From the NCBI GenBank assembly GCA_016192545.1, contig JACPTX010000054.1, positions 4,421 to 68,420 of the forward strand: a stretch of DNA of 64,000 bases. The letters are read 5' to 3'. This DNA comes from Candidatus Omnitrophota bacterium (GTDB lineage: Bacteria; Omnitrophota; Gorgyraeia; Aquiviventales; Aquiviventaceae). Under the pieces are notes generated by a model. It saw only the letters and a program-made list of their open reading frames with translations. It searched no databases and had not been told where the DNA came from. The position numbers and the translations under genes are program-made. This document shows, one piece after another, positions 2,804 through 63,152 of the stretch. Each line of letters starts with the position of its first letter. The first letter of the stretch is position 1.

Positions 2804-3183
2804 CGCGTGGCTGGGGAAGAGCAGGTCTCGCCGTTGCCATCGTGCTGTGGAGCCAGGCCGCCTGGGCTGAGCGGCTCGGCATCCACGACATGGCCGAAGC
2901 GCCGCACTACGGAACGAAGGTGACCGGGATGCTGGCCCGCGGGACGCTGAATATCGCCACCGGCTACGTGGACCTCCTCACGCGGATGGTGGACGAGACG
3001 ATGGCGGGTCCACCGGTCATCGGGACGCTGCGCGGCCTCGGGCTGGGGGCCGGGTGCGGCATCCTGCGGATGGGCTCCGGCGTGGTGGACTGGCTGACGT
3101 TCTGGGTGCCGGGGTTCAACGGCGCGCCCGTCGCCGTGTCCTACCGCGACTGCCTGCGCGATGTCCCGCTCCCGACCCTGTAA
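2800..3183 (+). CDS. small secreted protein resembling the exosortase-associated TIGR04073 family
   Basis: In-frame ATG at 2800 overlaps the upstream stop (ATGA). Signal peptide AIVLWSQAAWA. The RGTLNIATGYVDLL segment matches the RG..N...G motif I recall for that family; this is from memory, not a search. Confidence 0.45.
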   Translation: MTRGWGRAGLAVAIVLWSQAAWAERLGIHDMAEAPHYGTKVTGMLARGTLNIATGYVDLLTRMVDETMAGPPVIGTLRGLGLGAGCGILRMGSGVVDWLTFWVPGFNGAPVAVSYRDCLRDVPLPTL

Positions 3184-3278: not shown

Positions 3279-3649
3279 ATGCAACAGCTAAGCCAAGTCT
3301 TCAAAGCCCTGAGCGAGCCGCTGCGGCTGCGGATCATCCGCCAGCTCCTGACCAACGGCCGGGAGGCCTACGGGGAGGAGCTGGCCGGCGCGCTCGGCAT
3401 CCCGCCGTATCAGCTCTCCCGTCATCTCAAGGTGTTGACGGCGACCGGCCTGGTGACGGAACGCCGCGAGGGGCGGTGGGTCTACTACTCGCTCGCGAAA
3501 AACCACGGCCACGGGCAAGTCCTGGTCTCTCTGCGGCCCCTGCTCACTCATGCCAAGCCGCCGAGGCGCCGGAAGATGCGGCGCGCTCGTCAGGCGCTCG
3601 CGCCGGAGCAGGTCAACTGGAATAACGGGCCTGCCATTCCGGGGATGCT

Positions 3650-3653: not shown

Positions 3654-8128
<4,475 letters not shown>

Positions 8129-11589: not shown

Positions 11590-12816
11590 ATGAAGTACGT
11601 GGTGGTGTTACCGGATGGCGTGTCGGACGTCCCCCTCAAGGAGCTGGGCGGCAAGACCCCGCTTGAGGCCGCGAAGCATCCGAACATGGACTGGATCGCC
11701 CGCGAAGGGATCACGGGCTGGGCGCGGACGATCCCGCCGGGATTCGCCCCGGGCTCGGACGTGGGGTGCATGAGCGTGTTCGGCTATGACCCGCGCCGGT
11801 ATCACACCGGCCGCGCGCCGCTGGAAGCCGCGGCCCAGGGCATCGTGCTCACGGATTCACAGGTCGCGTTCCGCTGCAACACCCTGACCGTCGAGCACGG
11901 CGTGATGATCGACCACTCGGCGGACCACATCAAGACCGAAGACTCGGCGCAGCTCATGAAGACGGTGAGCGAGCGGCTCGGCGGCAACGGGGTGCAATTC
12001 CATGCCGGCGTGAGCTACCGCCACCTTGCCATCGTGTCGAGTGATGAGTGTCGAGTGACGAGTGAAGAGCTGGCCAAAATAGAGTGCACGCCGCCGCACG
12101 ACATCCTGGGAAAGCCCATTGACGGCTATCTGCCGAAGGGGCCGGGCTCCGACGTGCTGCGGCGGGTGATGCAGGAGTCCGTCGCGATTCTGGAGGCGCA
12201 TCCCGTGAACCGGCGGCGCGCGGCGGGCGGCCAACATGCCGCGACGATGCTGTGGTTCTGGGGGCAGGGCACGGCGACGGCCTTGCCGGCCTTTCAACAG
12301 GTGTACGGGAAGCGCGGGGCGTGCATCAGCGCGGTGGACATCGTGCGCGGCATCGGGCGGCTGGCCGGCCTGGAGATTTTGCAGGTGCCGGGCATCACCG
12401 GCTATTTCGACACCAACTACACCGGCAAGGCCGCCTATGCGCTCAAGGCGCTCGACGACGGGTTCGACTTCGTCCTGGTGCACGTCGAGTCCACGGATGA
12501 AGCCGGGCACATGGGCGACGCGAAGAAAAAGGTCCAGGCCATCGAGGACGTGGACCGGCTGGTGGCGGGCGCGCTGCTCGAAGGGCTGACGCGGCGCGGC
12601 GAGCCGTTTGGTATCATGGTGGTGCCGGACCATCCCACGGACACCACGCGCAGGACCCACATCCCGGAGCCGGTGCCGTTTGCGGTCTATGCCACGAACG
12701 GCGCGAAGGATGCGGTAGCCGCGTATACAGAATCAGCGGTGAAAGGCTCGTCGCTGAGATTTGAAGAAGGGCATCAATTGATGTCGCGGTTCCTTGGTTG
12801 GGGTCAGACCCCATAA
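11590..12816 (+). CDS. apgM: cofactor-independent phosphoglycerate mutase, archaeal type
   Basis: MKYVVVLPDG..D.P start and the HVESTDEAGHMGD metalloenzyme motif. I prefer ATG 11590 to the extended ORF that starts at 11500. Confidence 0.85.
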   Translation: MKYVVVLPDGVSDVPLKELGGKTPLEAAKHPNMDWIAREGITGWARTIPPGFAPGSDVGCMSVFGYDPRRYHTGRAPLEAAAQGIVLTDSQVAFRCNTLTVEHGVMIDHSADHIKTEDSAQLMKTVSERLGGNGVQFHAGVSYRHLAIVSSDECRVTSEELAKIECTPPHDILGKPIDGYLPKGPGSDVLRRVMQESVAILEAHPVNRRRAAGGQHAATMLWFWGQGTATALPAFQQVYGKRGACISAVDIVRGIGRLAGLEILQVPGITGYFDTNYTGKAAYALKALDDGFDFVLVHVESTDEAGHMGDAKKKVQAIEDVDRLVAGALLEGLTRRGEPFGIMVVPDHPTDTTRRTHIPEPVPFAVYATNGAKDAVAAYTESAVKGSSLRFEEGHQLMSRFLGWGQTP

Positions 12817-12838
12817 TTCTTGAGGGGTCTGACCCCTC
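12800..12838 (+). repeat. family B palindromic repeat (GGGGTCAGACCCC ... GGGGTCTGACCCCTC), short variant
   Basis: Cores at 12800-12812 and 12824-12836. The apgM stop lies inside the element. AAGGAGG (12842-12848) and the pepA ATG follow. Confidence 0.85.
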
Positions 12839-12852
12839 TATAAGGAGGTTTC

Positions 12853-17459: not shown

Positions 17460-17464
17460 GCTTA

Positions 17465-17517
17465 GAGGGGTCTGACCCCGTCTGATAAACCGTCGCGCTT
17501 GAGGGGTCTGACCCCTC
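17465..17517 (+). repeat. family B palindromic repeat
   Basis: Cores at 17467-17479 and 17503-17515. AAGGAGG and the aldolase ATG follow. Confidence 0.85.
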
Positions 17518-17543
17518 TTTATCAAAAGGAAAAGGAGGGACCC

Positions 17544-18486: not shown

Positions 18487-20355
<1,869 letters not shown>

Positions 20356-20356
20356 C

Positions 20357-20408
20357 GGGGTCAGACCCCGTCAGTTGAGGCCGTCGTTCTTGAGGGGTCT
20401 GACCCCTC
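20357..20408 (+). repeat. family B palindromic repeat
   Basis: Cores at 20357-20369 and 20394-20406, starting directly after the alpha-subunit stop. GAGGAGGA and the beta-subunit ATG follow. Confidence 0.85.
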
Positions 20409-20421
20409 TTGAGGAGGAAGC

Positions 20422-26377: not shown

Positions 26378-26451
26378 GCGCCCGTAGCTCACTTGGATAG
26401 AGCGCTTGGCTTCGAACCAAGAGGCAGCAGGTTCGATTCCTGCCGGGCGCA
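26378..26451 (+). tRNA. tRNA-Arg (anticodon TCG)
   Basis: Acceptor GCGCCCG/CGGGCGC, anticodon stem CTTGG/CCAAG with loop CTTCGAA, T-arm GCAGG-TTCGATT-CCTGC. Confidence 0.9.
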
Positions 26452-26589
26452 CTTTTCTGAGTAGGCAGGAATCGAGGGGAGGCCCGACTTCGGTTGATCA
26501 GCGTCGGCGCGACGAATAGGAGCGCCGACATACCTTAGGAGGGCCGGGTGGCCGACCCGGAGCCCCGCCGATAGCGGGGCGGAGGGCGC

Positions 26590-26606
26590 CGATTCCTGCC
26601 GGGCGC
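26590..26606 (+). repeat. 17-nt direct repeat of the tRNA-Arg(TCG) 3' end
   Basis: CGATTCCTGCCGGGCGC occurs at 26434-26450 (inside the tRNA) and again at 26590-26606. An inverted copy, GGCAGGAATCG, lies at 26464-26474. Confidence 0.8.
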
Positions 26607-26627
26607 GTTCTTCTGCGGATGTGTCGC

Positions 26628-26700
26628 GGGCCGTTAGCTCAACTGGTAGAGCAGGGGACTCTTAATCCCAAGGTCGAAGGTTCGATCCCTTCACGGCCCA
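26628..26700 (+). tRNA. tRNA-Lys (anticodon CTT)
   Basis: Acceptor GGGCCGT/ACGGCCC, anticodon loop CTCTTAA, T-arm GAAGG-TTCGATC-CCTTC. Confidence 0.9.
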
Positions 26701-26717
26701 TCGTTTGATCCCAGCAA

Positions 26718-26798
26718 GGGCGGGTGGCGGAATGGCAGACGCGACGGCCTTAGGAGCCGTTGGGGAAACCCGTAGAGGTTCAAATCCTCTCTCGCCCA
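26718..26798 (+). tRNA. tRNA-Leu (anticodon TAG), class II with long variable arm
   Basis: Acceptor GGGCGGG/CTCGCCC, anticodon stem ACGGC/GCCGT with loop CTTAGGA, variable arm GGGGAAACCC, T-arm AGAGG-TTCAAAT-CCTCT. Confidence 0.85.
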
Positions 26799-26816
26799 CG
26801 ACGGTGTGTGATCGAC

Positions 26817-26888
26817 GCGGGAGTAGCTCAGGGGTAGAGCGTCACGTTGCCAACGTGAATGTCGCGGGTTCAAATCCCGTCTCCCGCT
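26817..26888 (+). tRNA. tRNA-Gly (anticodon GCC)
   Basis: Acceptor GCGGGAG/CTCCCGC, anticodon loop TTGCCAA, T-arm GCGGG-TTCAAAT-CCCGT. Confidence 0.9.
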
Positions 26889-28731: not shown

Positions 28732-30743
28732 TGGACCGGCCGGCCGTCTGGTTCCTGATGGCGATTCATTGCCACCAGCCGGTCGGCAACTTTGGGTTTG
28801 TGTTCGACGAGGCGTTCCGCCTCGCCTATGAGCCGTTTCTGACGACGCTGGAACGGCACCCGTCCGTCCGGTTGAGCTGGCATCTGAGCGGCGGCCTGCT
28901 GGAGTGGATGCGCGAGCGCCGCCCGGAATTTCTCGCGAGGCTCCGGCGCCTGGTGGAGCGCGGGCAGGTCGAGATGCTGGCCGCGGGGCACTACGAACCG
29001 ATCCTGCCGCTGATCCCGGAAGCGGATCGCCAGGGTCAGGTGGCCCTGATGCGCCAGGCCCTCCAGCAGATGTTCGGCGTGGAGCCCGTGGGCCTGTGGT
29101 GCACCGAACGCGTGTGGGAGCCGGAGCTGCCCCAGACGCTGGCGCGGGCCGGCATCCGGTACACGATTGTGGATGCCAACCAGTTCCAGGTCGCCGAGCG
29201 GTATCTGCCGGCCCACCTGCGCGTTCAGGAGGGCCCGCACTGGGACCTCATGGGCTGCTATACGATCGACTACGCCGGCTCGTCCGTCGCGCTGTTTCCG
29301 GCCTCCAAGCGCCTGCGGTACACCATGCCGTTCCAGGACGTGCCGAAGACGATGGAGATCTTGAAACGGCTGGAACCGCTGGCGCCGATCTCGCTCACGT
29401 ACGCGGACGACGGTGAAAAATTCGGGCTCTGGCCGAAGACGCATCAATGGGTGTACGAGGAAGGATGGTTGGAGCGGTTCTTCAGCGCGCTGGAGCGGGA
29501 AGCGGAGTGGTTGAGGACCGCCACCTGCCAGGAGTACCTGGCGCAGGTCGGCCCCCAGGGACGCGTGCAGCTGCCCTGCGGCAGCTATGAGGAAATGCTG
29601 GAGTGGTCCGGCGGCTCGTTCAGGAATTTCTTCGTGAAATACCCGGAAGCCAACGCCATGTACCACCGCATGCTGGACGTCAGCCGCCAGATTCAAGAGA
29701 TTCCGAACAAGGCAAAAGGCAAAAGGCAAAAGGCAAAACTGGTGGAAGAGGCCCGGCGGGAGCTCTACATGGGGCAGTGCAACGACGCCTACTGGCACGG
29801 CGTGTTCGGGGGGCTGTACCTGGCGCATCTGCGGCGGTCGGTCTACCAGCATCTGATCCGCGCCGAGGGGCTCACCCGGCAGGCCTCCGGTTCGCGGGCC
29901 GCGCGGGAACAGCGCGACCTCGATGGGGACGGTCGGCCGGAGGTGGCGCTGCGCAGCCGTTCACTGCGGGTGGTGGTCGATCCGGATGAGGGCGGCGCCG
30001 TGACCGAAGTGGATGGCTACGAGCGGGCGGTCAACCTGCTGGATACGCTCAGCCGCCGCCCCGAACCGTACCACGACAAGCTTCGGACCGCGCACCCCGC
30101 CGGGGTCCCGGGCGGGAGCCAGACGCCGGCCAGCATCCATGATCTCGTCGGGGTGAAAGAGGAAGGGCTCCGGGATCTGTTGGTCTACGACGATCATCGG
30201 CGCAGCAGTTTTCTCGATTACGCGTTCTCGGCGATGCCGGGCCTTCAGGAGATCATGCGCGGCACCTGGAGCGAGCATCGTCTGTGGTCAAGCGGGGCGT
30301 GGACCCTGGACGCTTCGCGGGCCGCCGCACGGCATCCGCTCACCGTTTCTTTGGTCCGGCGGCTTGAGGGCGGCGTGATGCGCAAAACGGTGAGCCTCTC
30401 GCCGAGCCGGCCGCAGGTGGTCTTCCGCTATGAGGCGGAGGGCCTGGCGATTCCCGTCGTGGGGTTGGAGTTCAATCTGGGCCTGCAGGGCGAGCCGTGG
30501 CGCCGGCCCGGCTGGCAAGAAGGGGCTCGCGGGCTTGAGGTGCGCGACGCCTCGTTGGGCGTCGGCGTGCGGATGAGCAGTGCGATGCCGGCGACGGTGG
30601 CGCATTTCCCGATCGAGACCGTGTCCGAGTCTGAAGAAGGGCTGGAGCGGACGCCGCAGGGGTTGGCGGTCGTGTGGTTATGGGCCACGGGCGGCGGACG
30701 GCGCGCCTCCTGCGAGCTGGTCTGGAACATCGAGACGTGGTGA
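28731..30743 (+). CDS. glycoside hydrolase family 57 protein (alpha-glucan processing)
   Basis: The N-terminus (HCHQPVGNF...YEPFL...) and the W.TERVWEP catalytic region are typical of GH57 with a DUF1925/1926-like C-terminus. The start overlaps the yvcK-like stop. Confidence 0.8.
   Translation: MDRPAVWFLMAIHCHQPVGNFGFVFDEAFRLAYEPFLTTLERHPSVRLSWHLSGGLLEWMRERRPEFLARLRRLVERGQVEMLAAGHYEPILPLIPEADRQGQVALMRQALQQMFGVEPVGLWCTERVWEPELPQTLARAGIRYTIVDANQFQVAERYLPAHLRVQEGPHWDLMGCYTIDYAGSSVALFPASKRLRYTMPFQDVPKTMEILKRLEPLAPISLTYADDGEKFGLWPKTHQWVYEEGWLERFFSALEREAEWLRTATCQEYLAQVGPQGRVQLPCGSYEEMLEWSGGSFRNFFVKYPEANAMYHRMLDVSRQIQEIPNKAKGKRQKAKLVEEARRELYMGQCNDAYWHGVFGGLYLAHLRRSVYQHLIRAEGLTRQASGSRAAREQRDLDGDGRPEVALRSRSLRVVVDPDEGGAVTEVDGYERAVNLLDTLSRRPEPYHDKLRTAHPAGVPGGSQTPASIHDLVGVKEEGLRDLLVYDDHRRSSFLDYAFSAMPGLQEIMRGTWSEHRLWSSGAWTLDASRAAARHPLTVSLVRRLEGGVMRKTVSLSPSRPQVVFRYEAEGLAIPVVGLEFNLGLQGEPWRRPGWQEGARGLEVRDASLGVGVRMSSAMPATVAHFPIETVSESEEGLERTPQGLAVVWLWATGGGRRASCELVWNIETW
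29711..29738 (+). repeat. (GGCAAAA)x4 heptanucleotide tandem repeat inside the GH57 coding sequence
   Basis: Four perfect 7-nt units, read directly. The unit length is not a multiple of 3. Confidence 0.9.
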
Positions 30744-31045
30744 TGCCGACCTTGCGGAGAACCGTGACGGTGGTGCACCGGCAAGGGCTCCATGCCCGTC
30801 CGGCCGCCCTCTTTGTGGATGTTGCGAAGCGGTTCAGCAGCCGCATCACCGTCAAGAAAGGCCGGAAGAGCGTGGATGGCAAGTCAATTATGGGCCTGCT
30901 CACGCTCGCTGCAAACCAGGGGGCCCGCATCGCCCTCGTCGCGGACGGCCCTGATGCCCACGAGGCGATCGAGCGGTTGAGCCGCGTGGTCACCGAATCG
31001 CTGGCGGACGCCGCCCGGCCTGCCGCGAGCCGGCACGTGCCATGA
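30743..31045 (+). CDS. ptsH: phosphocarrier protein HPr
   Basis: GLHARPA (His15 site) and GKSIMGLLTL (Ser46 region). ATG 30743 overlaps the GH57 stop. Confidence 0.9.
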   Translation: MPTLRRTVTVVHRQGLHARPAALFVDVAKRFSSRITVKKGRKSVDGKSIMGLLTLAANQGARIALVADGPDAHEAIERLSRVVTESLADAARPAASRHVP

Positions 31046-31169
31046 CCCTTCGACGCGCTTCGCTTGCTCAGGGTCATGGTGAGCGAGCAAAGCGAATCGA
31101 ACCATGACCCTTCGACGCGTTTCACTTGCTCAGGGTCATGGTGAGCGAGCAAAGCGAGTCGAACCATGA
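31042..31169 (+). repeat. family A palindromic intercistronic element, two tandem 62-bp units each bounded by ATGA
   Basis: Units 31042-31103 and 31104-31165 differ at 4 positions. ATGA occurs at 31042, 31104 and 31166. The first contains the ptsH stop and the last contains the ptsI start. Each unit plus the next ATGA is a 22-codon stop-free frame (MTLRRASLAQGHGERAKRIEP*). Confidence 0.9.
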
Positions 31170-32908
31170 TCACCCTGAAAGGCATTCCCGCCTCCCCGGG
31201 GGTGGCCATCGGCAAGGCGGTGCTCTTCGACAGCGAGGATCTGCTGATCCCGCGCCGGAGCATCACCGAGGACCAAATCCCGACCGAAATCCTTCGGTTC
31301 GAAGAAGCCCTGATCCAGACCCGGCATCAGATCCTGGCGGTTCAGCGCCGGCTGGCCGAGGATCTGAACCAGGAGCACGCGGAGATCTTCAACGCGCATC
31401 TCCTCGTGCTGGAAGACCAGAGCCTGCGGGAGGAGGTCCTCAACGGGCTGAAGGCCCAGCGGCTCAACGTCGAGGCGATCTTCAACGACGTGGTCCGCCG
31501 GCACCTCAAGGCGTTTGCCCGGACCGAAGACGAGTATCTGCGGGACCGCACCGCGGATATCGATGACGTCCGCAAGCGCATCCTGCGCAATCTGACCGGC
31601 CGGCATCCGGACTTCCTGACGCAGCTGAGCGAGCCGGGGGTCGTGGTCGCCCACTCCCTCTCGCCCTCCGAGACGGCCATGATGCACAAGCAGCACGTCC
31701 TGGCGTTTATCACGGACATCGGCGGCCGGACCGGCCACACGGCCATCATGGCCAAGTCGCTGGCGATTCCAGCGGTGGTCGGCCTCGAGGTGGCGACCAA
31801 ACGGGTCCGGAAAGATGCGCTGATCATCGTGGACGGGACGCACGGCGAGGTGGTCGTGGACCCGGACCCGGACACGCGGCACCGCTACGAGGTCGACCAG
31901 CGGCGCATGCAGGAGCTCAATCGCCAGCTCCTGCAGCTCAAGGACCTCCCCTCCCAAACATTGGACGGCCACCGCGTGATGCTCTCGGCGAATATCGAGC
32001 TGCCTGAGGAGATCCCCTCCGTCATCGCGCATGGCGCCGAGGGCATCGGCCTGTACCGGACCGAGTTCTTCTACCTGAACCGCGCGGATTTTCCCTCGGA
32101 GGAAGAGCAGTTCCAGGCGTACAAAGCCGCCGCCGAGCAGTTGAAGCCGCATCCGGTGATCATCCGGACCGTGGACCTCGGCGGGGATAAGTTTCTCTCG
32201 CCGCTGGACCTGCCCTCGGAGATGAACCCGTTCATGGGCTGGCGGGCCATCCGGTTCAGCCTGGCGCGCCCCGACATCTTCCGGATCCAGCTGCGGGCCA
32301 TCCTGCGCGCCAGCCCCGCCGGGAACCTCAAGCTCATGTACCCGATGATTTCGGGCATTGAGGAGCTTCGGCGGGCCAACGAGATTCTGCGCGAGGTGCA
32401 GGACGAGCTGCGGCGGGAGGGGATCCCGTTCGCCGAGGCCATGGACGTGGGGGCGATGATCGAGGTGCCCTCCGCCGCCCTCACGTGCGATCTCCTGGCG
32501 CAGGAGGTCAAGTTCTTTTCGATCGGGACCAACGACCTCATCCAGTATGCGCTGGCGGTCGACCGGGTGAACGAGCAAATCGCCTATCTCTACGAGCCGA
32601 CCCACCCCGGGGTGATCCGGCTGATCAAACAGGTCATCGACGGGGGGCATGCGGCCGGCTTGTGGGTGGGGATGTGCGGGGAGATGGCCGGGGAGCCGGC
32701 CTCGGCGCTCCTGTTGCTGGGCCTGGGGCTGGATGAGTTCTCCGCCTCGCCCGTGCAGGTCCCCCTCATCAAGAAACTGATCCGCTCCGTGGAGCATCGG
32801 GCGGCGCAGGCCGTCGCGCAAGAAGCGCTCACGCTGCGCAGTGGAAAGGAAATTGAAGAGTTTTTGACGGCGCATGTGCGCCGCCTGGTGCCTGAGGCGG
32901 CGGAATGA
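31166..32908 (+). CDS. ptsI: phosphoenolpyruvate-protein phosphotransferase (Enzyme I)
   Basis: 580 aa with GGRTGHTAIMAKSLAIPAV (active-site His) and a PEP-utilising C-terminal domain. Confidence 0.95.
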   Translation: MITLKGIPASPGVAIGKAVLFDSEDLLIPRRSITEDQIPTEILRFEEALIQTRHQILAVQRRLAEDLNQEHAEIFNAHLLVLEDQSLREEVLNGLKAQRLNVEAIFNDVVRRHLKAFARTEDEYLRDRTADIDDVRKRILRNLTGRHPDFLTQLSEPGVVVAHSLSPSETAMMHKQHVLAFITDIGGRTGHTAIMAKSLAIPAVVGLEVATKRVRKDALIIVDGTHGEVVVDPDPDTRHRYEVDQRRMQELNRQLLQLKDLPSQTLDGHRVMLSANIELPEEIPSVIAHGAEGIGLYRTEFFYLNRADFPSEEEQFQAYKAAAEQLKPHPVIIRTVDLGGDKFLSPLDLPSEMNPFMGWRAIRFSLARPDIFRIQLRAILRASPAGNLKLMYPMISGIEELRRANEILREVQDELRREGIPFAEAMDVGAMIEVPSAALTCDLLAQEVKFFSIGTNDLIQYALAVDRVNEQIAYLYEPTHPGVIRLIKQVIDGGHAAGLWVGMCGEMAGEPASALLLLGLGLDEFSASPVQVPLIKKLIRSVEHRAAQAVAQEALTLRSGKEIEEFLTAHVRRLVPEAAE

Positions 32909-32973
32909 CCCTTCGACGCGCTGATCGCTTGCTCAGGGTCATGGTGAGCGAGCGAGAGCGAGTCGAACCATGA
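32905..32973 (+). repeat. family A palindromic intercistronic element (65-bp unit) bounded by ATGA
   Basis: ATGA at 32905 (ptsI stop) and at 32970 (next gene's start). 32905-32973 is a 23-codon stop-free frame. Confidence 0.9.
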
Positions 32974-33779
32974 GCGACGCCCTCAGCGCGGTGCTGCTGG
33001 CGGCCGGCTATGGGACGCGGCTGTACCCGCTGACGAAGGACCGCCCCAAAGCGCTGCTGCCGCTGGGAGACACGGTGCTGCTGGATCCGGTCATGGACGC
33101 CCTCCGCGCGGTCCCCGGGCTGGCGTCGATGGTGCTCGTGAGCAACCACCGGTTTGCGGAGGGGTTCCGTCAGTGGCGGGCTCAACGGGGCCTGGCGCTC
33201 GAGGTGGTGGACGACGGGACCGACGCCCCGGAAACCCGCCTGGGAGCGATCCGGGATCTCCTGCTGGGGCTGGCCCGCGTGCCGGCGTCGCATGACGCGC
33301 TCGTGCTGGGAACCGACAATCTCTTTACGTGGTCGCTGGCGGAGTTTGTGCGCGTCGCCAGAACCAAACGCCCTGCCGCGACGGTGACGCTCCGGCAGTC
33401 CCCGTCACGCGACGAGGCCCGTCGGTGCGCGGTCGTGGACGTGGAGCCGGACGGCCGGGTGCGCCGCTATGTCGAGAAACCCGCGGAGCCGTTCTCCTCG
33501 ATCGTGGGGCTGTGTGTGTACTATCTGCCGTCGTCCGTGCGGCGTCGGGTGCAGGAATTCCTCGACCAGGGCGGCCAGGGGGATGCGCCGGGGTATTTCA
33601 TCGAATGGCTGGTGAGCCGGGAACCGGTGTATGGGTTCCTGACGGCAGGCGAGTGGTTTGACGTGGGGACGCAAGCCTCGTACCAGGCGGCGGTTCAGCG
33701 GTGGCCAGGCGCGGAGAGGGGTCAGACCCCGTCGGGTAACCCGTCGTTCTTGAGGGGTCTGACCCCTCGCGACTCATAA
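32970..33779 (+). CDS. sugar-phosphate nucleotidyltransferase (NTP_transferase family)
   Basis: The product begins with the motif [21 protein letters not shown]. The last ~20 codons ([21 protein letters not shown]) are encoded by a family B repeat. Confidence 0.75.
33718..33768 (+). repeat. family B palindromic repeat
   Basis: Cores at 33718-33730 and 33754-33766. AAGGAGG (33778-33784) overlaps the upstream TAA, and the metK ATG follows. Confidence 0.85.
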
Positions 33780-40938: not shown

Positions 40939-42849
40939 ATGCGGATTCTCGGAATTTCCTGTTTCTACCACGATGCGGCCGCGGCCTTGATTGAGGACGG
41001 CCGGCTCATCGCCGCAGCCGAGGAGGAGCGGTTTTCCCGCAAAAAGCACGATGCGGATTTTCCGAAGTTGGCGATCCGGTTTTGCCTGGAGACCGGCGCC
41101 CTCAGCGCCCCCGACCTGGATTATGTGGTCTTCTACGAAAAACCGTTCCTGAAGTTCGAACGCATCCTCCTGTCGTCGCTCCAAACCTTCCCCTGGTCCT
41201 GCGGGACGTTCCGCCAGGCGATGACGACCTGGCTGCTGGACAAGCTCTGGGTGAAGACGCTGATTCATGAGCAGCTCGGCATCCCGGAGGACCGGATCCT
41301 GTTTTCCGAGCACCACCTGTCGCACGCCGCCAGCGCCTTCCTCTGTTCGCCCTTCGAGGAGGCGGCGATCCTGACGGCGGATGCGGTCGGAGAGTGGGCG
41401 ACGACCACCATGGCCGTCGGGCGCGCCAGCTGGACCGGGCAGCCGCCCAATGCCATCCGCATGCTGCGGGAGATGCGGTTCCCGCACTCCCTCGGCTTGT
41501 TGTATTCCGCGTTTACGGCGTTCCTGGGGTTTGAGGTGAATGAGGGCGAGTACAAGGTCATGGGCATGGCGCCCTACGGGACCCCGCGCTACGTGGACGA
41601 GGTCTGGCATCTCCTGCGGTTGGCGGACAGGGGCGGCTTTCAGCTCGACATGAGCTACTTCAGCTTTCATCATTCCGCCCGTCAGTCCTTCACCCGAAAA
41701 TTCGAGCAGCTCTTCGGTCCTCCGCGGGATCCCAAGGCGCCGTTCGTGACCGGGGAATTCGGGGACGAGCTGGACCGCGATCAGGAGCTGTTGAGGCAGA
41801 GCCGGCACTACGCGGATATCGGGGCCAGCATCCAGCGGGTGACCGAGGAGATCATGCTCTCGCTGGCCCGCGAGCTGTACAAAGAGACCGGCATCCCGCG
41901 CTTGTGCCTGGCCGGCGGGGTCGCCTACAACAGCGCGGCCAACGGCCGGATCATGCGGGAAACGCCGTTTCAGGAGGTCTACATTCAGCCGGCGGCAGGC
42001 GATTCCGGCGGGGCGCTGGGCGCCGCGCTCTATGCCTATCACGTGATCCTGCAGCAGCCGCGCCGGTTCATCATGGAGCACGCCTACTGGGGCAAGGCGT
42101 TCGATGAGCGGGCGATCGCCGAGGCGGTCCAGCGCCATGGGCTCTCCGCCAGGCGGCTGGGGAGCGAGCAGGAGGCGGTGCGTGAGACCGTGCGGCACCT
42201 CGTGGACGGCCGCGTGGTGGGGTGGTATCAGGGCCGCTGTGAATGGGGCCCACGGGCCCTCGGCAACCGCAGCATCCTGGCCGACCCGCGCCGCAAAGAC
42301 ATGAAGGCGATCGTCAACCGCAAGATCAAGTTCCGCGAGCCGTTCCGGCCGTTCGCCCCCTCCATACTGGACCGCAGCCTGGGTCAGTTTGTAGACTATC
42401 CGATCGCGAAAGGCCTGGCGGCGGCGCGGTTCATGTTGTGCGTCAGCCCGATCCGCCCCGAGCGCCGCGAGACCATCCCGGCGGTGACCCACGTGGATGG
42501 GACCGGCCGGCTGCAGGCGGTTGAACAAGCCGCCAATCCGTTGTACTATCGCCTCATCGAAGCGTTCGAAGCCGAGACCGGGGTGCCGGTGGTGTTGAAC
42601 ACGTCCTTCAACCTGAAAGGCGAGCCGATTGTGAACCGGCCGGACGAGGCGATCTCCACGTTCCTGCGCAGCGACATGGATGCCCTGGTGATGGGCACCC
42701 ACCTGGTCACGAAGAATCATCCTGAGGAGCAGACCGAGTCGATGAATCCCGCCCCTTTGCCTTCCGTCCAATCTAAACCGGAGATGACGAAACGACGTCG
42801 GCCTTCGTCCATGCGTGTCGAAGAACGACACAGCAAAGGGGCGGGATGA
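40939..42849 (+). CDS. NodU/CmcH-family carbamoyltransferase
   Basis: MRILGISCFYHDAAAALIEDGRLIAAAEEERFSRKKHD start, ASKHA-like N-domain and YrdC-like C-domain. The true start is ATG 40939 inside ORF 40708-42849. Confidence 0.9.
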   Translation: MRILGISCFYHDAAAALIEDGRLIAAAEEERFSRKKHDADFPKLAIRFCLETGALSAPDLDYVVFYEKPFLKFERILLSSLQTFPWSCGTFRQAMTTWLLDKLWVKTLIHEQLGIPEDRILFSEHHLSHAASAFLCSPFEEAAILTADAVGEWATTTMAVGRASWTGQPPNAIRMLREMRFPHSLGLLYSAFTAFLGFEVNEGEYKVMGMAPYGTPRYVDEVWHLLRLADRGGFQLDMSYFSFHHSARQSFTRKFEQLFGPPRDPKAPFVTGEFGDELDRDQELLRQSRHYADIGASIQRVTEEIMLSLARELYKETGIPRLCLAGGVAYNSAANGRIMRETPFQEVYIQPAAGDSGGALGAALYAYHVILQQPRRFIMEHAYWGKAFDERAIAEAVQRHGLSARRLGSEQEAVRETVRHLVDGRVVGWYQGRCEWGPRALGNRSILADPRRKDMKAIVNRKIKFREPFRPFAPSILDRSLGQFVDYPIAKGLAAARFMLCVSPIRPERRETIPAVTHVDGTGRLQAVEQAANPLYYRLIEAFEAETGVPVVLNTSFNLKGEPIVNRPDEAISTFLRSDMDALVMGTHLVTKNHPEEQTESMNPAPLPSVQSKPEMTKRRRPSSMRVEERHSKGAG

Positions 42850-43349: not shown

Positions 43350-43440
43350 GGGGTGGCTGAGGCTAACCATCTGTAAGGGTGGGGCGCAAAGCTACGGGCC
43401 CTTGACATCTAAGATGTCAAGGACAGCCGAGCTGCCAAAA
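43350..43440 (+). promoter_or_regulatory. c-di-GMP-I (GEMM-I) riboswitch-like element
   Basis: Segment-by-segment match to the Vc2 aptamer as I recall it:
- GGCTAACC versus GGCAAACC.
- CCATCT-GTAA-GGGTGG, a GNRA-capped helix, versus CCAUUC-GAAA-GAGUGG.
- GGCGCAAAGC versus GACGCAAAGC.
- A long helix, CCTTGACATCT-A-AGATGTCAAGG.
- ACAGCCGAGCTGCC closing strand.
The element ends 10 nt before ATG 43446. Confidence 0.65.
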
Positions 43441-45341: not shown

Positions 45342-47066
45342 ATGTCGAGCCTCAAGGAGCGTCTCATTGAGGTCCTCGTGTCCAACCGCCTGCTCACGCC
45401 GGAGCAGCTCGAAGACGCGCTGAGGATTCAGCAGCGTCAAGGCGGCAGCCTCCAGAAGATCCTCATCGACCATCGGTTCGTGGACGAGCAGCATCTCCTG
45501 GCCGCCGTCAGCCAGGGCCTGGGGGTTCCGCCGATCAGCCTGGGGCGCCTCAAGATCGACCCCGCGTTGAAGACCAAGGTCCCCCGCGAGGTCGCCAAGC
45601 AGCACCAGATTGTGCCGATTGCCTGCATGGGCAACACCCTCACCATCGCCATGGCGGATCCCTTGAACATCTTCGCGCTCGACACGCTCACGACGATGAC
45701 CGGCCTGACCATCAATCCGCTGCTGGCCTCGGCGCAGGACATCCAGGAGACGATCGATCTCTACTACGGAACCGGGATCGAAGAAACGCTGCAGGAAATC
45801 GCCAAGGGCAGCGGCGGGGCGGTGGAGGTGCTGCGGGCGGAAGCGCCGCAGGAGGAGACCGACGTCAACCGCCTCATGCAGCTCACCCAGGAGGCCCCGG
45901 TCGTCCGGATGACCGACGCGCTCCTGGCGAAGTCCGTGTCGCTCCACGCCTCCGACCTCCTCATCGAGCCGATGGAGAGGGCCGTCCGCATCCGCTATCG
46001 GGTGGACGGCGTGCTCCAGGAGGGCGAGGCGCCCCCCCGGCAGATGCAGCAGGCGGTCGTGTCCCGCATCAAGATCATGGCCGAGCTGAACATTGCGGAG
46101 CACCGGCTGCCGCAGGACGGCCACTTCGCCTTCCGGGCGGAGGGGCGGATGATCGACGTCCGCGTCTCGGTCCTGCCGACGAACTTCGGCGAGAAAATCG
46201 TCCTGCGGGTGCTGGATAAAGGGCAGATCCATCTCAATATCGATGACCTGGGGTTCTCCCCGGAAGATTTGAAAACCATCAAGCGATGCGCGGAACGTCC
46301 GCACGGCATGATCCTGTCGACCGGCCCGACCGGGTCGGGGAAGACGACGACGATGTACGCGCTCTTAAAGGCCATCGACAGCCCGGAGAAAAACATCGTG
46401 ACGGTGGAGGATCCTGTGGAATTCCAGCTTGAGGGCATCAACCAGGTCAATGCCCGGGCGGAGATCGGGCTGACCTTCGCCAAGGCCCTCCGGGCGATCC
46501 TCCGCCAGGACCCCGACGTCATCATGGTGGGGGAAATCCGCGATGCGGAAACCGCGGACATGGCCGTGAAATCCGCGTTGACCGGGCACCTGGTCTTGAG
46601 CACGCTCCATACGAACAGCGCCGCCGGCAGCATCGTGCGGCTCGTGAACATGGGGATCGAGCCGTTTCTCCTCAACTCCTGCCTCATGGCGGCGATCGGC
46701 CAGCGGCTGGTCCGGAAAATCTGCCCCCAGTGCAAAGAAACCTACCGGCCGCCGAAAGGGCTGGCGCAGAAAGCCGGTCTCCTGGGGCCGGATGGGCAGA
46801 GTCCGTCGCTGGCCAGGGGCACGGGGTGTTCCTCCTGTCTGCAGTCCGGGTATCGGGGGCGGGACGTGATTGCGGAAGTCATCGCCCTGACGCCGGACAT
46901 TCGCAGCCTGATTCTCCGGCGCGCCCAGGAACGCGAGGTGGAGGAGGCGGCCCGCAAAGCCGGGATGCGGACCCTGCGCGAGCACGGCCTGCTCAAGGCC
47001 ACGGCGCACGTCACGACGCTCGATGAGGTGTTCCGGACGACGATCGGGGAGGTGGTGGAGGGATGA
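45342..47066 (+). CDS. pilB: type IV pilus / T2SS assembly ATPase (GspE/PilB family), copy 1
   Basis: 574 aa with an N-terminal MshEN-like domain (degenerate motif), Walker A GPTGSGKTT and a C-terminal tetracysteine motif (CPQC...CSSC). Confidence 0.9.
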   Translation: MSSLKERLIEVLVSNRLLTPEQLEDALRIQQRQGGSLQKILIDHRFVDEQHLLAAVSQGLGVPPISLGRLKIDPALKTKVPREVAKQHQIVPIACMGNTLTIAMADPLNIFALDTLTTMTGLTINPLLASAQDIQETIDLYYGTGIEETLQEIAKGSGGAVEVLRAEAPQEETDVNRLMQLTQEAPVVRMTDALLAKSVSLHASDLLIEPMERAVRIRYRVDGVLQEGEAPPRQMQQAVVSRIKIMAELNIAEHRLPQDGHFAFRAEGRMIDVRVSVLPTNFGEKIVLRVLDKGQIHLNIDDLGFSPEDLKTIKRCAERPHGMILSTGPTGSGKTTTMYALLKAIDSPEKNIVTVEDPVEFQLEGINQVNARAEIGLTFAKALRAILRQDPDVIMVGEIRDAETADMAVKSALTGHLVLSTLHTNSAAGSIVRLVNMGIEPFLLNSCLMAAIGQRLVRKICPQCKETYRPPKGLAQKAGLLGPDGQSPSLARGTGCSSCLQSGYRGRDVIAEVIALTPDIRSLILRRAQEREVEEAARKAGMRTLREHGLLKATAHVTTLDEVFRTTIGEVVEG

Positions 47067-47175
47067 CCCTTCGACGCGGCCTTCGGCCTTGTGGTTCGAC
47101 GGGCTCACCATCCCTCGAACCATCCCGAGCGAGGTCGAGGGACTCAGGGTCATGGTGAGCGGAGTCGAACCATGA
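47063..47175 (+). repeat. family A palindromic intercistronic element, 109-bp long variant bounded by ATGA
   Basis: ATGA at 47063 (pilB copy 1 stop) and at 47172 (pilB copy 2 start). The ends match the short units. The interior carries an inverted copy of the right arm: GGTTCGAC...CTCACCAT against ATGGTGAG...GTCGAACC. Confidence 0.85.
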
Positions 47176-48872
47176 GCTTCAAGGATCGCCTGTCGAAGGC
47201 GCTGGTCGCCAAGGGGCTGCTGAAGGAAGAGCAGCTCGGCCAGCTGGCCCGTGAAGCGGGTGCGGCGAAGAAGAGCCTGGCGCAGGTGGTGATCGAGCGG
47301 GGTCTGGTCACGGAGACCGCGCTCGTCGGGCTCCTCGCGGAAGAGCTGGGCATCCCCACGCTGTCCCTGTCGAAATACCGGATCGATCCGGCGGTGGCCC
47401 GCATCATCCCGGAACGGATCGCCCGGCAATACACCCTGATCCCGATCACCAAATTCGGAGAACGCCTGGTCGTGGCGATGGCGGATCCGATGAACATCTT
47501 CGCGCTCGATGATCTCAAGGTGCTGACCCGCTATGCGGTGGATCCGGTGCTGGCGAAGGACGCGGACATCCGGCGCGCGATTGAGCAGGCCTACGGCCAG
47601 CCCTCCAACCTCGCGATCGCGCTCTCCGGCGACAACGGCGAGTCCGCCTCCGTGACGGAGACCGACACCCTGGACAGCACGGTCCAGCTCATGTTGTCCG
47701 AGGAAGCCGGCGATGCCCCGGTCGTCAAAGCCATCAACCTGATGATTGTGGAAGCGCTCCGCAACCGCGCCTCGGACATCCATCTGGAGCCGGTGGAGCA
47801 GGGGCTGCGCATCCGCTACCGGATCGACGGGCGCCTGCGGGAAGCGCATCGCCTGCCGAAGGCGATCCAGAGCACCGTGTTGACGCGGCTGAAGATTCTC
47901 TCAGGGCTCGACATCACGGAGTGGCGGCTGCCGCAGGATGGGCGGTTCAAAGTCCGGCTGGACGCGCGCGAGGTGGACTTCCGGGTGTCGGTGCTGCCGA
48001 TCACCCATGGCGGCAAGGTCGTGCTGCGGGTGCTGGATCAGAGCAACCTGTCCATCGGGTTGGACCACCTGGGATTCCTGCCGGAGTCGATCGAGCGGTT
48101 CAAGGAGGCCGTCAGCCGGCCCCACGGCATGATCCTGGTGACCGGCCCGACCGGCTCCGGGAAGTCCACGACGCTCTACTCGATCCTCAACCAGCTCAAC
48201 AACCCGACCCGCAACATCACGACCATCGAGGATCCGGTGGAATACCAGCTGGCGGGCATCACCCAGGTGCAGGTGAATCCCGACATCGGCCTGACGTTCG
48301 CGGCCGGGCTGCGGGCCCTGCTGCGCCAGAGCCCTGATGTGGTGATGGTCGGCGAGATCCGGGACTTTGAAACGGCTGACATCGCCATGAAAGCCAGTCT
48401 GACCGGCCAACTCGTGCTGTCCACCCTGCATACGAACGACGCGCCCTCGGCGGTCTCGCGGCTGGTGGACATGGGGGTGGAGCCGTTCCTGGTGGCCTCG
48501 AGCGCCACGCTCATCGAGGCCCAGCGGCTGGTCCGCAAGCTGTGTCCGAACTGCCGCAAGCCCGCCGAGCCGCCCAAGGATCTGCTGAAACGCTTGAACT
48601 GCTCCCCGGGGAAGGAGGCGACGTTCTTCCGGGCGGAGGGGTGTCACCTGTGCAACCGCAGCGGCTATCGGGGCCGGATGGGCATCATCGAGGTCTTGAT
48701 GGTTGATGAGCATGTGAGGGAGCTGATCGTGGGGAAGGCCCAGTCCTGGGAAATCAAGGACTATGCGGTCACGCGCCTGGGGATGACCCCGTTGCGCGAA
48801 GACGGCCTGAGGAAGGCGGCGATGGGATTGACGACGCTGGAAGAGGTCCTGCAGGTGACGTCGGAGGAGTAA
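47172..48872 (+). CDS. pilB: type IV pilus / T2SS assembly ATPase (GspE/PilB family), copy 2
   Basis: 566 aa from ATG 47172, with Walker A GPTGSGKST and CPNC...CHLC. The ORF-track start at 47091 lies inside the repeat. Confidence 0.9.
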   Translation: MSFKDRLSKALVAKGLLKEEQLGQLAREAGAAKKSLAQVVIERGLVTETALVGLLAEELGIPTLSLSKYRIDPAVARIIPERIARQYTLIPITKFGERLVVAMADPMNIFALDDLKVLTRYAVDPVLAKDADIRRAIEQAYGQPSNLAIALSGDNGESASVTETDTLDSTVQLMLSEEAGDAPVVKAINLMIVEALRNRASDIHLEPVEQGLRIRYRIDGRLREAHRLPKAIQSTVLTRLKILSGLDITEWRLPQDGRFKVRLDAREVDFRVSVLPITHGGKVVLRVLDQSNLSIGLDHLGFLPESIERFKEAVSRPHGMILVTGPTGSGKSTTLYSILNQLNNPTRNITTIEDPVEYQLAGITQVQVNPDIGLTFAAGLRALLRQSPDVVMVGEIRDFETADIAMKASLTGQLVLSTLHTNDAPSAVSRLVDMGVEPFLVASSATLIEAQRLVRKLCPNCRKPAEPPKDLLKRLNCSPGKEATFFRAEGCHLCNRSGYRGRMGIIEVLMVDEHVRELIVGKAQSWEIKDYAVTRLGMTPLREDGLRKAAMGLTTLEEVLQVTSEE

Positions 48873-50346: not shown

Positions 50347-50407
50347 CTTGGAAGGAGGTGAGACCGCAGAGCACGCACGTAACGGCAAGGGGCAGACCCC
50401 ATGTGTC

Positions 50408-50459
50408 GGGGTCAGACCCCGTCAGTTGAGACCATTGTTCTTGAGGGGTCTGACCCCTC
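50408..50459 (+). repeat. family B palindromic repeat, preceded by degenerate partial copies at 50347-50400
   Basis: Cores at 50408-50420 and 50445-50457. AAAGGAGG (50461-50468) and the pilin ATG follow. Confidence 0.85.
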
Positions 50460-50477
50460 TAAAGGAGGCTTCATTCG

Positions 50478-61323: not shown

Positions 61324-61395
61324 GGGCCGGTAGCTCAGTGGCAGAGCAGGTGGCTCATAACCACTTGGTCGGACGTTCGATCCGTCCCCGGCCCA
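61324..61395 (+). tRNA. tRNA-Met (anticodon CAT), elongator-like
   Basis: Acceptor GGGCCGG/CCGGCCC, anticodon loop CTCATAA. It lacks the initiator GGG/CCC anticodon stem, and Ile2 (lysidine) identity cannot be excluded. Confidence 0.85.
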
Positions 61396-61413
61396 CTCTT
61401 GCGGACGGATCAG

Positions 61414-61487
61414 GGGCGGTTAGCTCAGCCGGTTAGAGCGCTACCCTCACATGGTAGAGGTCACAGGTTCGAGCCCTGTACCGCCCA
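61414..61487 (+). tRNA. tRNA-Val (anticodon CAC)
   Basis: Acceptor GGGCGGT/ACCGCCC, anticodon stem CTACC/GGTAG with loop CTCACAT. Confidence 0.9.
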
Positions 61488-62718: not shown

Positions 62719-63152
62719 GGAACCGAAGAGCAGCCTGATGGCCGCCTCGCCCTGTTCGGCAGGGGGCGGGGAGGAAAGTCCGAGCTCCGAAGGGCAGCGT
62801 ACCCTGTGAAACACAGGGCCCCCCAGGCCTTCCTGCCCCCAGACTGGGGGAAGGCAGGAATGGGGGAGGATCAGAGCCACAGAGACGAGTATCCCCGAGT
62901 CTTCCTGTCCCCCGTTCGCGGGGAAGACAGGATCGGGGGGACGTGAAACGCGGCAATCTCTACGTGGAGCAAGGCCAAACACCCTACGTTTCAGGTTGCC
63001 CGCCTGACCCCCATCGTTTTGCTTCGGTTTGCGAAGCAAAACGAAGCAATGGGGGCGTAGGAAGGTGGGCCGCAAGAGTCCCGTCGCAAGACGCGACCCA
63101 GATGGATGGCCATCCTCGACAGAACTCGGCTTACCGGCTGCTTTTCGGTTCC
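62719..63152 (+). ncRNA. rnpB: RNase P RNA, bacterial type A
   Basis: P1 pairing is GGAACCGAAGAGCAGCC with GGCTGCTTTTCGGTTCC. Conserved GGAGGAAAGTCCGAGCTCC, GGAGCAAGGCCAAA and ACAGAACTCGGCTTACCGG are present. It is longer than the E. coli RNA because of extra hairpins. Confidence 0.9.

Follow-up and report, generated by a model that had tools for sequence, protein, structure and literature searches.

A Palindromic Repeat at Overlapping Stop and Start Codons in Omnitrophota and Other Bacterial Phyla: Insertion Sites, Frame Continuity and Probable Mobility

In the genome of a Candidatus Omnitrophota bacterium (assembly GCA_016192545.1), an uncultivated groundwater bacterium, the genes for HPr and enzyme I (ptsH and ptsI) are separated by two tandem 62-nt palindromic units that begin and end at the overlapping stop and start codons ATGA. 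We have analyzed these units within a 64,000-nt stretch of contig JACPTX010000054.1 (positions 4,421 to 68,420, forward strand), referred to throughout as the window, and in contigs of other genomes. We consider it likely, taken jointly with the rest of the explanation developed below, that each unit is a copy of a mobile but non-autonomous palindrome of small size (45-150 nt), of the repetitive extragenic palindrome (REP) or MITE (miniature inverted-repeat transposable element) kind. The data directly support a repeat family, empty sites, specificity for TGA together with fixed orientation, regenerated start codons, an enrichment of frame continuity across the element and covariation between its loop and its ends.

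Copies in the Window and the Repeat Family

The window features on which the analysis rests are as follows.

30743-31045, plus strand: ptsH (HPr; PF00381, E 2.8e-30, and the list of open reading frames, ORFs), with its TGA stop inside the ATGA at 31042-31045
31042-31045, plus strand: ATGA in which the HPr stop overlaps the start of mini-cistron 1; the original target site, from the sequence and the bare ATGA of relatives
31046-31107, plus strand: element unit 1 (CCC...CCATGA, 62 nt), arms at ~31049-31070 and 31080-31101, loop GGGTCATGG at 31071-31079
31108-31169, plus strand: element unit 2 (62 nt), arms at 31111-31132 and 31142-31163, loop at 31133-31141; its terminal ATGA (31166-31169) is the ptsI start
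31042-31107, plus strand: mini-cistron 1, 21 codons plus TGA, stop-free, MTLRRASLAQGHGERAKRIEP (ORF list)
31104-31169, plus strand: mini-cistron 2, 21 codons plus TGA, stop-free, MTLRRVSLAQGHGERAKRVEP (ORF list)
31166-32908, plus strand: ptsI (enzyme I; PF05524/PF00391/PF02896), starting at the regenerated ATG, with its stop in the ATGA at 32905-32908
32909-32973, plus strand: third copy (65 nt), which separates the stop of ptsI from the nucleotidyltransferase's ATG at 32970
32970-33779, plus strand: nucleotidyltransferase gene (PF00483 from residue 7), starting at the element's ATG
45342-47066, plus strand: PilB-like T2SSE ATPase (PF00437/PF05157), with its stop in the ATGA at 47063-47066
47067-47175, plus strand: fourth, composite copy (109 nt), between two PilB-like genes, with a foreign module nested in its 5' arm
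47172-48872, plus strand: second PilB-like ATPase (PF00437/PF05157), starting at the element's ATG

An earlier note on this DNA, made from its letters alone, had described two 62-nt units with ATGA at 31042, 31104 and 31166, the first carrying the ptsH stop and the last the ptsI start. All of this stands, since the tetranucleotides (31042-31045, 31104-31107 and 31166-31169) are read directly from the sequence, the PF00381 match places the end of HPr, and the Pfam alignment of ptsI runs from residue 5. As it is the PEP-utilisers_N alignment that begins at this residue, the ATG at 31166 is the true ptsI start, and the N-terminus that follows, MITLKGIPA, is the same as in relatives without the element. 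The two units are 95% identical (repeat family D13) and each forms a hairpin with 22-nt arms that are 77% complementary and a 9-nt loop, in agreement with the imperfect hairpin of ~22 bp noted earlier, with an RNA minimum free energy of -27 to -30 kcal/mol per unit and z of about -3. The stop-free "22 codons" counted previously in each unit are 21 sense codons plus the stop. No canonical Shine-Dalgarno (SD) sequence was found upstream of ptsI, again as described, only GCGAG at -14 to -10. The element gave no Rfam match, either with the whole window at the gathering threshold or with 30950-31260 at E <= 10, and a scan placed neither an intrinsic terminator nor a promoter there, the hairpin being followed by CCATGA and not by a U tract.

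Four occurrences of the 18-mer core CTCAGGGTCATGGTGAGC were counted in the window, where 0.11 are expected, and none of 100 shuffles reached 4. The copies at 32905-32973 and 47063-47175 are also bounded by ATGA on both sides, and all 3 occupied sites lie between co-directional genes with the element co-oriented, in tandem units at ptsH-ptsI. The mini-cistron at 32905-32973 is in frame and stop-free over 22 codons. For ptsI, the NTP transferase and pilB2 the alignment with homologues begins at the element's ATG; the 566-aa homologues of the second PilB-like ATPase begin at this same residue, and the N-terminal extensions of longer PilB homologues proved to be unrelated to the element. Besides the 3 occupied sites there are ~12 bare NTGA gene junctions in the window. 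Those that had been pointed out at 2800, 3650, 10409, 51557 and 54359 are indeed ATGA between ORFs with coding-type G+C content at third codon positions, and that at 42846 is an ATGA, putatively at a gene junction.

Copies elsewhere were sought by an exact scan for the 18-mer core in contigs, using one genome per species, which gave at least 103 matching stretches; loci are cited below by L numbers. Among the matches listed there are ~70 full copies beyond the window, which bears out the earlier suggestion of a dispersed REP/MITE-type repeat, the remaining matches being chance 18-mers in unrelated genomes. Sixty-seven of the copies in these matches have both end motifs and with the 4 window copies make up the set of 71 used below. 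The hosts, again among the matches listed, are metagenome-assembled genomes (MAGs) of Omnitrophota, Elusimicrobiota, Planctomycetota, Patescibacteria (G+C 36-45%), Binatia, delta-proteobacteria and Nitrospirae, and core matches are numerous in several of them. A complete chromosome, that of the Elusimicrobia genome OY969767.1, carries the element as well. Viral contigs searched for the exact core gave no match, so that there is no sign of a phage vector.

The copies share the ends (N)TGACCC(N)TTCGA ... CTCAGGGTCATGGTGAGC ... TCGAACCATGA, with a consensus of the form (N)TGA / CCC(N)TTCGA - variable arm - CTCA GGGTCATGG TGAG - variable arm - TCGAACC A / TGA, and they range in size from 45 to ~150 nt, the variation sitting in the two inner arms. 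Between Patescibacteria and Omnitrophota ~35 of 45 positions do not vary, the core being fixed by the search. Because an exact 18-mer was used the conservation of the core holds by construction, which is not so for the conservation of the end motifs and their association with the core; in 1.38 Mb of loci the co-occurrence with the core is near one-to-one, with 72 five-prime motifs (3 orphans) and 69 three-prime motifs (2 orphans). Tandem, truncated and nested copies exist, and composite copies hold other hairpin modules.

Two observations on mosaic copies may be added here. The Omnitrophota MAG JACQRC01 (L010, L042, L062, L076, L079, L040) contains mosaic arrays, with a truncated 22-nt unit in L042 as well. 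The module nested in the 47063 copy (GGTTCGACGGGCTCACCATCCCTCGAACCATCCCGAGC..GTCGAGGG, window 47080-47142) recurs in other MAGs, at ~5250-5320 of L048 and in L127, where it lies on the minus strand at ~4685 of the reverse complement, and it includes an apparent inverted right half of the canonical element.

Insertion Sites and the Hairpin Loop

The window is syntenic with JACPAY010000014 at ~78% DNA identity, and the best hits to its proteins carry the name Candidatus Omnitrophica. At each of the three junctions that are occupied in the window, relatives show just one ATGA or GTGA overlap. The earlier note had proposed a comparison of this kind, and its expectation of a bare overlap holds at ptsH-ptsI, ptsI-nucleotidyltransferase and pilB-pilB, as well as at a fourth junction (L036 against L114, with ATGA). 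The empty and filled sites are given below.

ptsH-ptsI, empty: L109/L110, ...TCCGCATGATCGTC... / ...GCATGATCGTC, with ATGA and then ptsI directly
ptsH-ptsI, bare ATGA: L111, L113, L115 and L117; TGATG in L114
ptsH-ptsI, filled, window: ...GCCATGA(unit)(unit)TCACC...
ptsI-nucleotidyltransferase, empty: L149, GAGTGAGCGCTCC / GAGTGAGCGC
ptsI-nucleotidyltransferase, filled, window: GAATGA(element)GCGACGCC; downstream begins GCGACG
pilB-pilB, empty: L192, GTCGAGGGATGAGCAGC; bare ATGA in L190/L191
pilB-pilB, filled, window: GTGGAGGGATGA(element)GCTTCAAGG; downstream begins GCTTC
upstream gene-GH57 junction: filled in L036; bare ATGA in L114

It follows from this comparison that each insertion lies directly 3' of the TGA in a pre-existing NTGA overlap, and the downstream gene continues with the same codons after the regenerated ATGA. 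At the pilB junction the element is absent from the closest relative, L188 (PilB2 93% identical in amino acids), which has at ~462-479 the sequence ATGACTCTCCATGA, two ATGA 6 nt apart, apparently what a deletion of the element left behind, or its footprint. No copy was found in 80 metagenomic loci of ptsI relatives (56-81% identity, ~550 kb). Logan short-read contigs with an identical ptsI (1.7-1.8 kb; L104-L107) end inside the flanking copies (window 31140-32949); the element thus breaks assemblies and must be multi-copy in samples SRR12113428-33. The element is also present at orthologous positions in pairs of MAGs, L015 and L090 (Binatia) and L035 and L072 (labeled Planctomycetia and Omnitrophota), so that either some insertions predate species splits or these bins are closely related.

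Among the matches listed, ~75 of 80 copies have TGA as the trinucleotide next to the CCC end and none has TCA. The absence of TCA-flanked copies means that, with respect to this asymmetric target, insertion is strictly oriented. Of the 71 copies, 68 have ATGA at the 3' end. In the same matches the base before the 5' TGA is A in 35, G in 13, T in 2 and C in none of the gene-associated copies, and close to even (A5 G6 T6 C4) in copies without flanking ORFs. This first-base spectrum indicates that the element itself recognizes or duplicates TGA and not ATGA; the left-hand ATGA and GTGA reflect the sites that survive, namely stop/start overlaps and start codons. The earlier proposal that ATGA is targeted or duplicated therefore stands insofar as the copies sit at stop-start overlaps, with the intrinsic target shortened to TGA. 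By an ORF-length heuristic, and hence approximately, 18 of the 71 copies are at a stop-start junction, 21 at a start only, 8 at a stop only and 17 at neither, with 7 unclassified. Flanks of the form TGG...TGG in L008 and CGA...CGA in a variant described below favor target duplication; the fixed orientation favors, by analogy, a strand-specific, non-duplicating insertion of the HUH type.

The loop GGGTCATGG is exactly complementary to the joined ends of the element, CCATGA/CCC, and can pair with either flank. In the helix of loop and 3' flank pairing extends to 97.6% of cells, one-sided changes are without exception wobble-compatible, and formal covariation is uninformative here since the structure is almost invariant and the core fixed by the search. 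One MAG contains a nested variant, located inside canonical copies after ...TTCGA, that has the ends TGC...CCACGA and the flanks CGA...CGA. Its loop, GCATCGTGG, is complementary to CCACGA/TGC, so that 4 of 4 changed loop positions are compensated in the ends or target. As ACGA is neither a start nor a stop codon, the pairing more likely has to do with recognition of ends or target than with translation, and most likely the conserved loop serves such recognition during transposition. This ACGA variant is the one informative case of loop-target covariation; for two further hairpin families (loops GGCAAGTG and GGGCTGTCC) agreement with the rule is not clear. The first of these loops is that of a third hairpin family in JACQRC01, with flanks GAG..GAG or CAG..CAG, which is nested inside the ACGA variant.

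A more far-reaching reading of the loop may be put forward tentatively, as one that is unlikely to be correct as a whole. The 9 nt could act as a nucleic-acid guide that pairs with both ends and the target (CCA-TGA-CCC), so that the target would be programmable, and the version that reads TGA would have become a cross-phylum parasite of operon junctions which rebuilds the start codon and is kept harmless by relays of termination and reinitiation. If true, this would be a new mode of target choice for a miniature element and, at the same time, a natural modular device for translational coupling.

Translational Continuity and Alternative Explanations

Continuity across the element can be described by d, the distance from the 5' NTG to the 3' ATG, together with the one frame-dependent stop of the core, the TGA of GGTGAGC, which overlaps a GTG. 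In mode i the core is open and d = 2 mod 3, giving a single mini-cistron that ends in the terminal ATGA. Mode ii has d = 1 mod 3 with the TGA of the core in frame, such that a first ORF extends to GGTGA and the overlapping GTG opens a second that reaches the terminal ATGA. In mode iii d = 0 mod 3 and the open frame extends the downstream protein at its N-terminus. If arm lengths were random, a chain (i + ii) is expected in 1/3 of copies, a fusion (iii) in 2/9 and neither in 4/9. What is found in the 71 copies is 39 chains, 19 fusions and 13 others, corresponding to continuity in 58 of 71 as compared with 5/9 expected. When the copies are collapsed into 20 clusters at 88% identity there are 13 chains, 4 fusions and 3 others, with p = 0.004 for chains and p = 0.006 for continuity (17/20). 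Where the frame passes the core, only 4 of 51 copies among the matches listed fall in the non-continuing length class.

The window's four units form an unbroken chain throughout, three being of type i and the composite 47063 copy of type ii. The latter is out of frame, with a first ORF (47063-47158) that ends at the TGA of GGTGAGC, from which the overlapping GTG at 47155 opens a 6-codon ORF terminating at the TGA of 47173-47175, which in turn overlaps the ATG at 47172. The single in-frame mini-cistron per unit that the earlier note had described is thus correct for three of these four units and is one of three modes in the family; the translational transparency that it had proposed agrees with the continuous copies and clusters counted above, and has to be qualified by those that break and by the GTGA relay that the 47063 copy needs. 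In AT-rich genomes, where ORF calls are reliable, an ORF starts exactly at the element's ATG in 13 of 21 copies (p = 0.007 against 1/3). Several copies that have no upstream gene show an SD-like motif before the 5' ATG (e.g. L013, L028, L102), as expected if the element had separated a gene from its own ribosome-binding site (RBS).

Inserts at the same junctions of relatives are bridged in a similar manner. In L036, the syntenic relative (4616-4957, minus strand), the repeat-filled ptsH-ptsI spacer of 340 nt is one 113-codon stop-free ORF with TGATG overlaps at both the HPr stop and the ptsI start, and it holds the element's right end in degenerate form, ...ATCGAACCATGG.... A MITE unrelated to the element, whose inverted ends (TCCCACCACCTG...CAGGTGGTGGGA) are perfect and whose flanks are ATGA...ATGA, is present at the GH57 and ptsI starts of a relative (L116 ~2136-2243; L118 581-878 and ~3338-3445), where it is crossed by stop-free ORFs of 98 and 35 codons that end in the gene's ATGA. 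This suggests that targeting of TGA or ATGA with frame continuity is a wider habit in the clade. At the ptsI-nucleotidyltransferase junction, in addition, there are GGTATCTGATACC palindromes in L036 (~2806-2878) and L117 (~3076-3120); the three in L036 form a 17-codon stop-free ORF that extends from the ptsI-stop ATGA to a GTGA at the next start, and the last encodes part of the N-terminus MVSDTG.

A mechanism that could account for these properties would begin with insertion next to TGA in one orientation, the end ...CCATGA arising either by duplication of TGA after the terminal A or from an element-borne ATGA. A TGA within an NTGA overlap or a start-codon ATGA would be among the few harmless insertion places in a compact genome; the upstream gene would retain its stop and the downstream gene would regain ATG and the first base of its second codon. 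Harmless insertion at overlaps would in this way lead to copies bounded by ATGA on both sides between co-translated genes. Reinitiation by scanning is inhibited when a stable structure directly follows the stop codon; an elongating ribosome, by contrast, has a source of energy (PMC7518266). A hairpin placed right after the stop would accordingly block scanning, non-elongating ribosomes, and the lineages to survive would have a frame, entered at the old start codon, in which an elongating ribosome is taken through the hairpin to the regenerated ATG. A ribosome that ends at the upstream TGA would reinitiate on the overlapping ATG or GTG, translate through and melt the hairpin, terminate at the TGA of the regenerated ATGA and reinitiate on the gene. 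The reinitiation, the melting and the chemistry of transposition are here inferred from the sequence, from which we also conclude that ribosomes can probably pass from gene to gene across the element. Each relay probably costs yield, so that the element may lower downstream expression and not be perfectly transparent.

Several points weigh against this explanation. Continuity is broken in 13 of the 71 copies, and it is similar (12/17, among the matches listed) in non-genic copies, which makes it a family-level property of successful lineages and not proof of selection at each site. Copies share descent, so that the frame statistics partly count lineages and not events. Two or more relays may reduce ptsI expression and not stay neutral, and GGAG, which resembles an SD sequence, is present at -11 to -8, 7 nt ahead of the ATG, in 18 of the 71 copies, including the 47063 copy (GCGGAGTCGAACCATGA), with CGAG in 15; de novo initiation at an SD brought by the element could thus take the place of reinitiation. 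The heuristic behind the assignment of gene context misses genes where loci are G+C-rich and put the window's own copies into wrong classes, leaving the counts approximate. Duplication of TGA and an element-borne ATGA yield the same picture. Finally, neither a transposase nor an autonomous parent, in the form of separated end pairs around a gene, was found in the 1.38 Mb of loci (8-kb loci and one 64-kb window).

The alternative that survives best, which we regard as possible and on balance improbable, is a selfish repeat with expression costs or regulatory side effects only, acting as an insulator like the hairpins termed RTS or through mRNA stability or processing as REP and Correia repeats do, and keeping, for example, HPr above EI, with the frames a by-product of G+C content and of the master copy. 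In E. coli, hairpins just behind a stop codon do lower reinitiation (PMC7518266), at 66% G+C a frame of 20 codons is commonly stop-free, 10 of the chain copies come from the 62/65-nt subfamily alone, and the similar continuity of non-genic copies fits as well. However, the cluster-level test is still significant (chain 13/20, p = 0.004), the core frame is strongly associated with total length, as the 4 of 51 copies in the non-continuing class attest, and in relatives stop-free ORFs that overlap the stop and start also span three unrelated inserts at these junctions.

It is unlikely, too, that the element is in essence a portable RBS, in which the 3' end GGAG/GGGAG-TCGAACC-ATGA supplies an SD, a 7-nt spacer and a start, the hairpin hides this site until an upstream ribosome opens it, and the frames of the mini-cistrons are incidental. 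The GGAG and CGAG counts given above speak for it, as does the location of the SD stretch in the 3' arm of the stem; the genome uses SD sequences, GGAGG following other repeats at 20417 and 50468, and repeats that carry an RBS and ATG are known, the Neisseria REP2 and Borrelia IR (PMC3184786). Yet the ptsI and 32905 copies have only GCGAG and many short copies AAAG, TAAG or CCAG, and the depletion of frame-breaking lengths (13/71 versus 4/9 expected) would be left unexplained, as would the fact that unrelated inserts at these junctions are spanned by long stop-free ORFs. The relay and the portable SD are not mutually exclusive.

Far less probable is a conserved cis-regulatory RNA, be it a structured leader or pseudoknot serving as operator, thermometer or ribozyme, in which the loop sequesters CCAUGA or AUGACCC. 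The ~35 of 45 invariant positions across phyla and a loop that pairs with either flank, with 97.6% of cells paired, are what such an RNA would show; the core conservation is, however, partly by construction of the search and Rfam gives no match even at E <= 10. The flanking genes are unrelated, presence is patchy with precise empty sites in close relatives, copies occur in tandem, nested and without a following ORF, and the ACGA variant retains loop-end complementarity without a start or stop codon. That the mini-ORFs, with their ATG starts and stop-free frames inside an operon, are genuine genes for functional 21-residue peptides is hardly credible, since all three frames relative to the core are used (offsets 0/1/2 in 15/36/20 of the 71 copies), so that the peptide is not conserved, and the ORF stops after 4-10 codons in AT-rich copies. 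Integron attC sites were rejected in view of core syntenic genes and no integrase context, and CRISPR and a chance palindrome were likewise considered and rejected.

If the termination-reinitiation relay holds, overlapping stop and start codons would be safe harbors for mobile DNA, selection for translational coupling would shape the length and frame of selfish repeats, and a long-neglected observation on mycobacterial interspersed repetitive units (MIRUs) would extend to uncultivated phyla and palindromic elements. The element offers natural constructs, with one, two or relayed mini-cistrons and their hairpins, for probing termination-reinitiation through structured RNA, and the loop-to-end complementarity is a testable hypothesis of guided target choice. 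In more practical terms, the repeats fragment short-read assemblies and can mislead gene callers, through N-terminal extensions and spurious small ORFs in MAGs of Omnitrophota, Elusimicrobiota and Patescibacteria.

The window contains a number of other features. A second dispersed hairpin repeat family (...CTTGAGGGGTCTGACCCCTC..., often with GGGGTCAGACCCC) is located at 12811-12840, 17462-17526, 20353-20417, 33713-33777 and 50404-50468; two of its copies end in GGAGG just before a gene and one is inside the 3' end of the nucleotidyltransferase ORF. A c-di-GMP-I riboswitch (43351-43439, 58 bits) lies upstream of three paralogous T2SSE/PilB-PilT-type ATPase genes (~44-49 kb), a class A RNase P RNA is at 62726-63149, and tRNA genes are at 727-892, 2174-2248, 26378-26888 and 61324-61487, five of them clustered at 26.4-26.9 kb.

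Comparison with Known Systems

A literature search with sequence strings of the element matched only unrelated primers, and a search on translational coupling and repeats led to reviews by Delihas and to the RTS paper and not to this element. The earlier note's statement that no family with such a property has been described is nonetheless incorrect in view of the MIRUs of mycobacteria (Delihas 2011, PMC3184786). As summarized there from Supply et al. 1997, these are intercistronic operon repeats of 40-100 bp, often in tandem and transcribed in the polycistron, whose ORFs overlap the neighboring genes at either end; direct repeats of a tetranucleotide flank them on both sides, and empty and filled sites suggest transposition. 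The present element is likewise intercistronic, co-oriented with the genes and in tandem at ptsH-ptsI, and its mini-cistrons (31042-31107, 31104-31169, 32905-32973 and the 47063-47175 relay) overlap the flanking stop and start. It differs in a host range of several phyla as opposed to one genus, in having no apparent sequence relationship (the two being set apart by description), in being made up mainly of a single long hairpin whose 9-nt loop is complementary to the element's own ends, and in being TGA-specific, oriented and ATGA-regenerating with three modes of continuity that include an internal GTGA relay.

With the REP, BIME and REPIN repeats associated with RAYT proteins the element shares a short, G+C-rich imperfect palindrome in many copies (4 in 64 kb), extragenic location, frequent placement after stops within operons, mosaic and tandem arrangement and, presumably, mobilization in trans. 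REPs, in contrast, have a conserved 5' GTAG and are species-specific, the 5' motif here being TGACCC(N)TTCGA, and they are not reported to carry flanking stop/start codons or mini-cistron read-through. The IS200/IS605 elements and their miniature derivatives (palindrome-associated transposable elements, PATEs) have subterminal hairpins and no terminal inverted repeats, and insert 3' of a short sequence in fixed orientation, with cleavage and target sites recognized by base pairing with an internal guide. That guide is at the foot of the hairpin and not in the loop, and there are two different hairpins, one per end. The element resembles PATEs in its fixed short target sequence, fixed orientation, hairpin and apparent absence of inverted termini, and the loop-end complementarity and ACGA covariation point by analogy to a PATE-like internal guide, a likeness that is suggestive only.

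As compared with a classical MITE, the inverted TTCGAC...GTCGAA of the element is subterminal and the terminal 3 nt (CCC and CCA) are unmatched. TGA is found on both sides in nearly all copies, which an element-borne TGA would equally produce. Both orientations would be expected for a MITE, whereas this element occurs only in the TGA orientation and is never flanked by TCA. Rickettsia palindromic elements (RPEs) are palindromic, with open frames, and are translated with the host gene (PMC10969869), and are thus comparable to the fusion class (19 of the 71 copies); they lie inside coding sequences as part of the protein, however, and not at gene boundaries as a mostly separate mini-cistron. The Neisseria REP2 and Borrelia IR repeats lie directly upstream of genes and supply an RBS and ATG (PMC3184786), but they carry a promoter, have no upstream stop overlap and lack the ATGA-to-ATGA architecture. 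In the case of RTS a stable hairpin directly after the stop codon governs reinitiation (Chemla et al. 2020, PMC7518266). RTS are non-mobile, sequence-unspecific and depleted within operons, in contrast to the present hairpin, which is found at the junctions of operon genes and is accompanied by an overlapping start through which an elongating ribosome could get past it.

Of these systems the MIRUs come nearest, and we claim membership for the element in none of the families compared. It is a hairpin element that targets TGA and regenerates ATGA, that is conserved across phyla to an unusual degree, and whose loop is complementary to its own junction.

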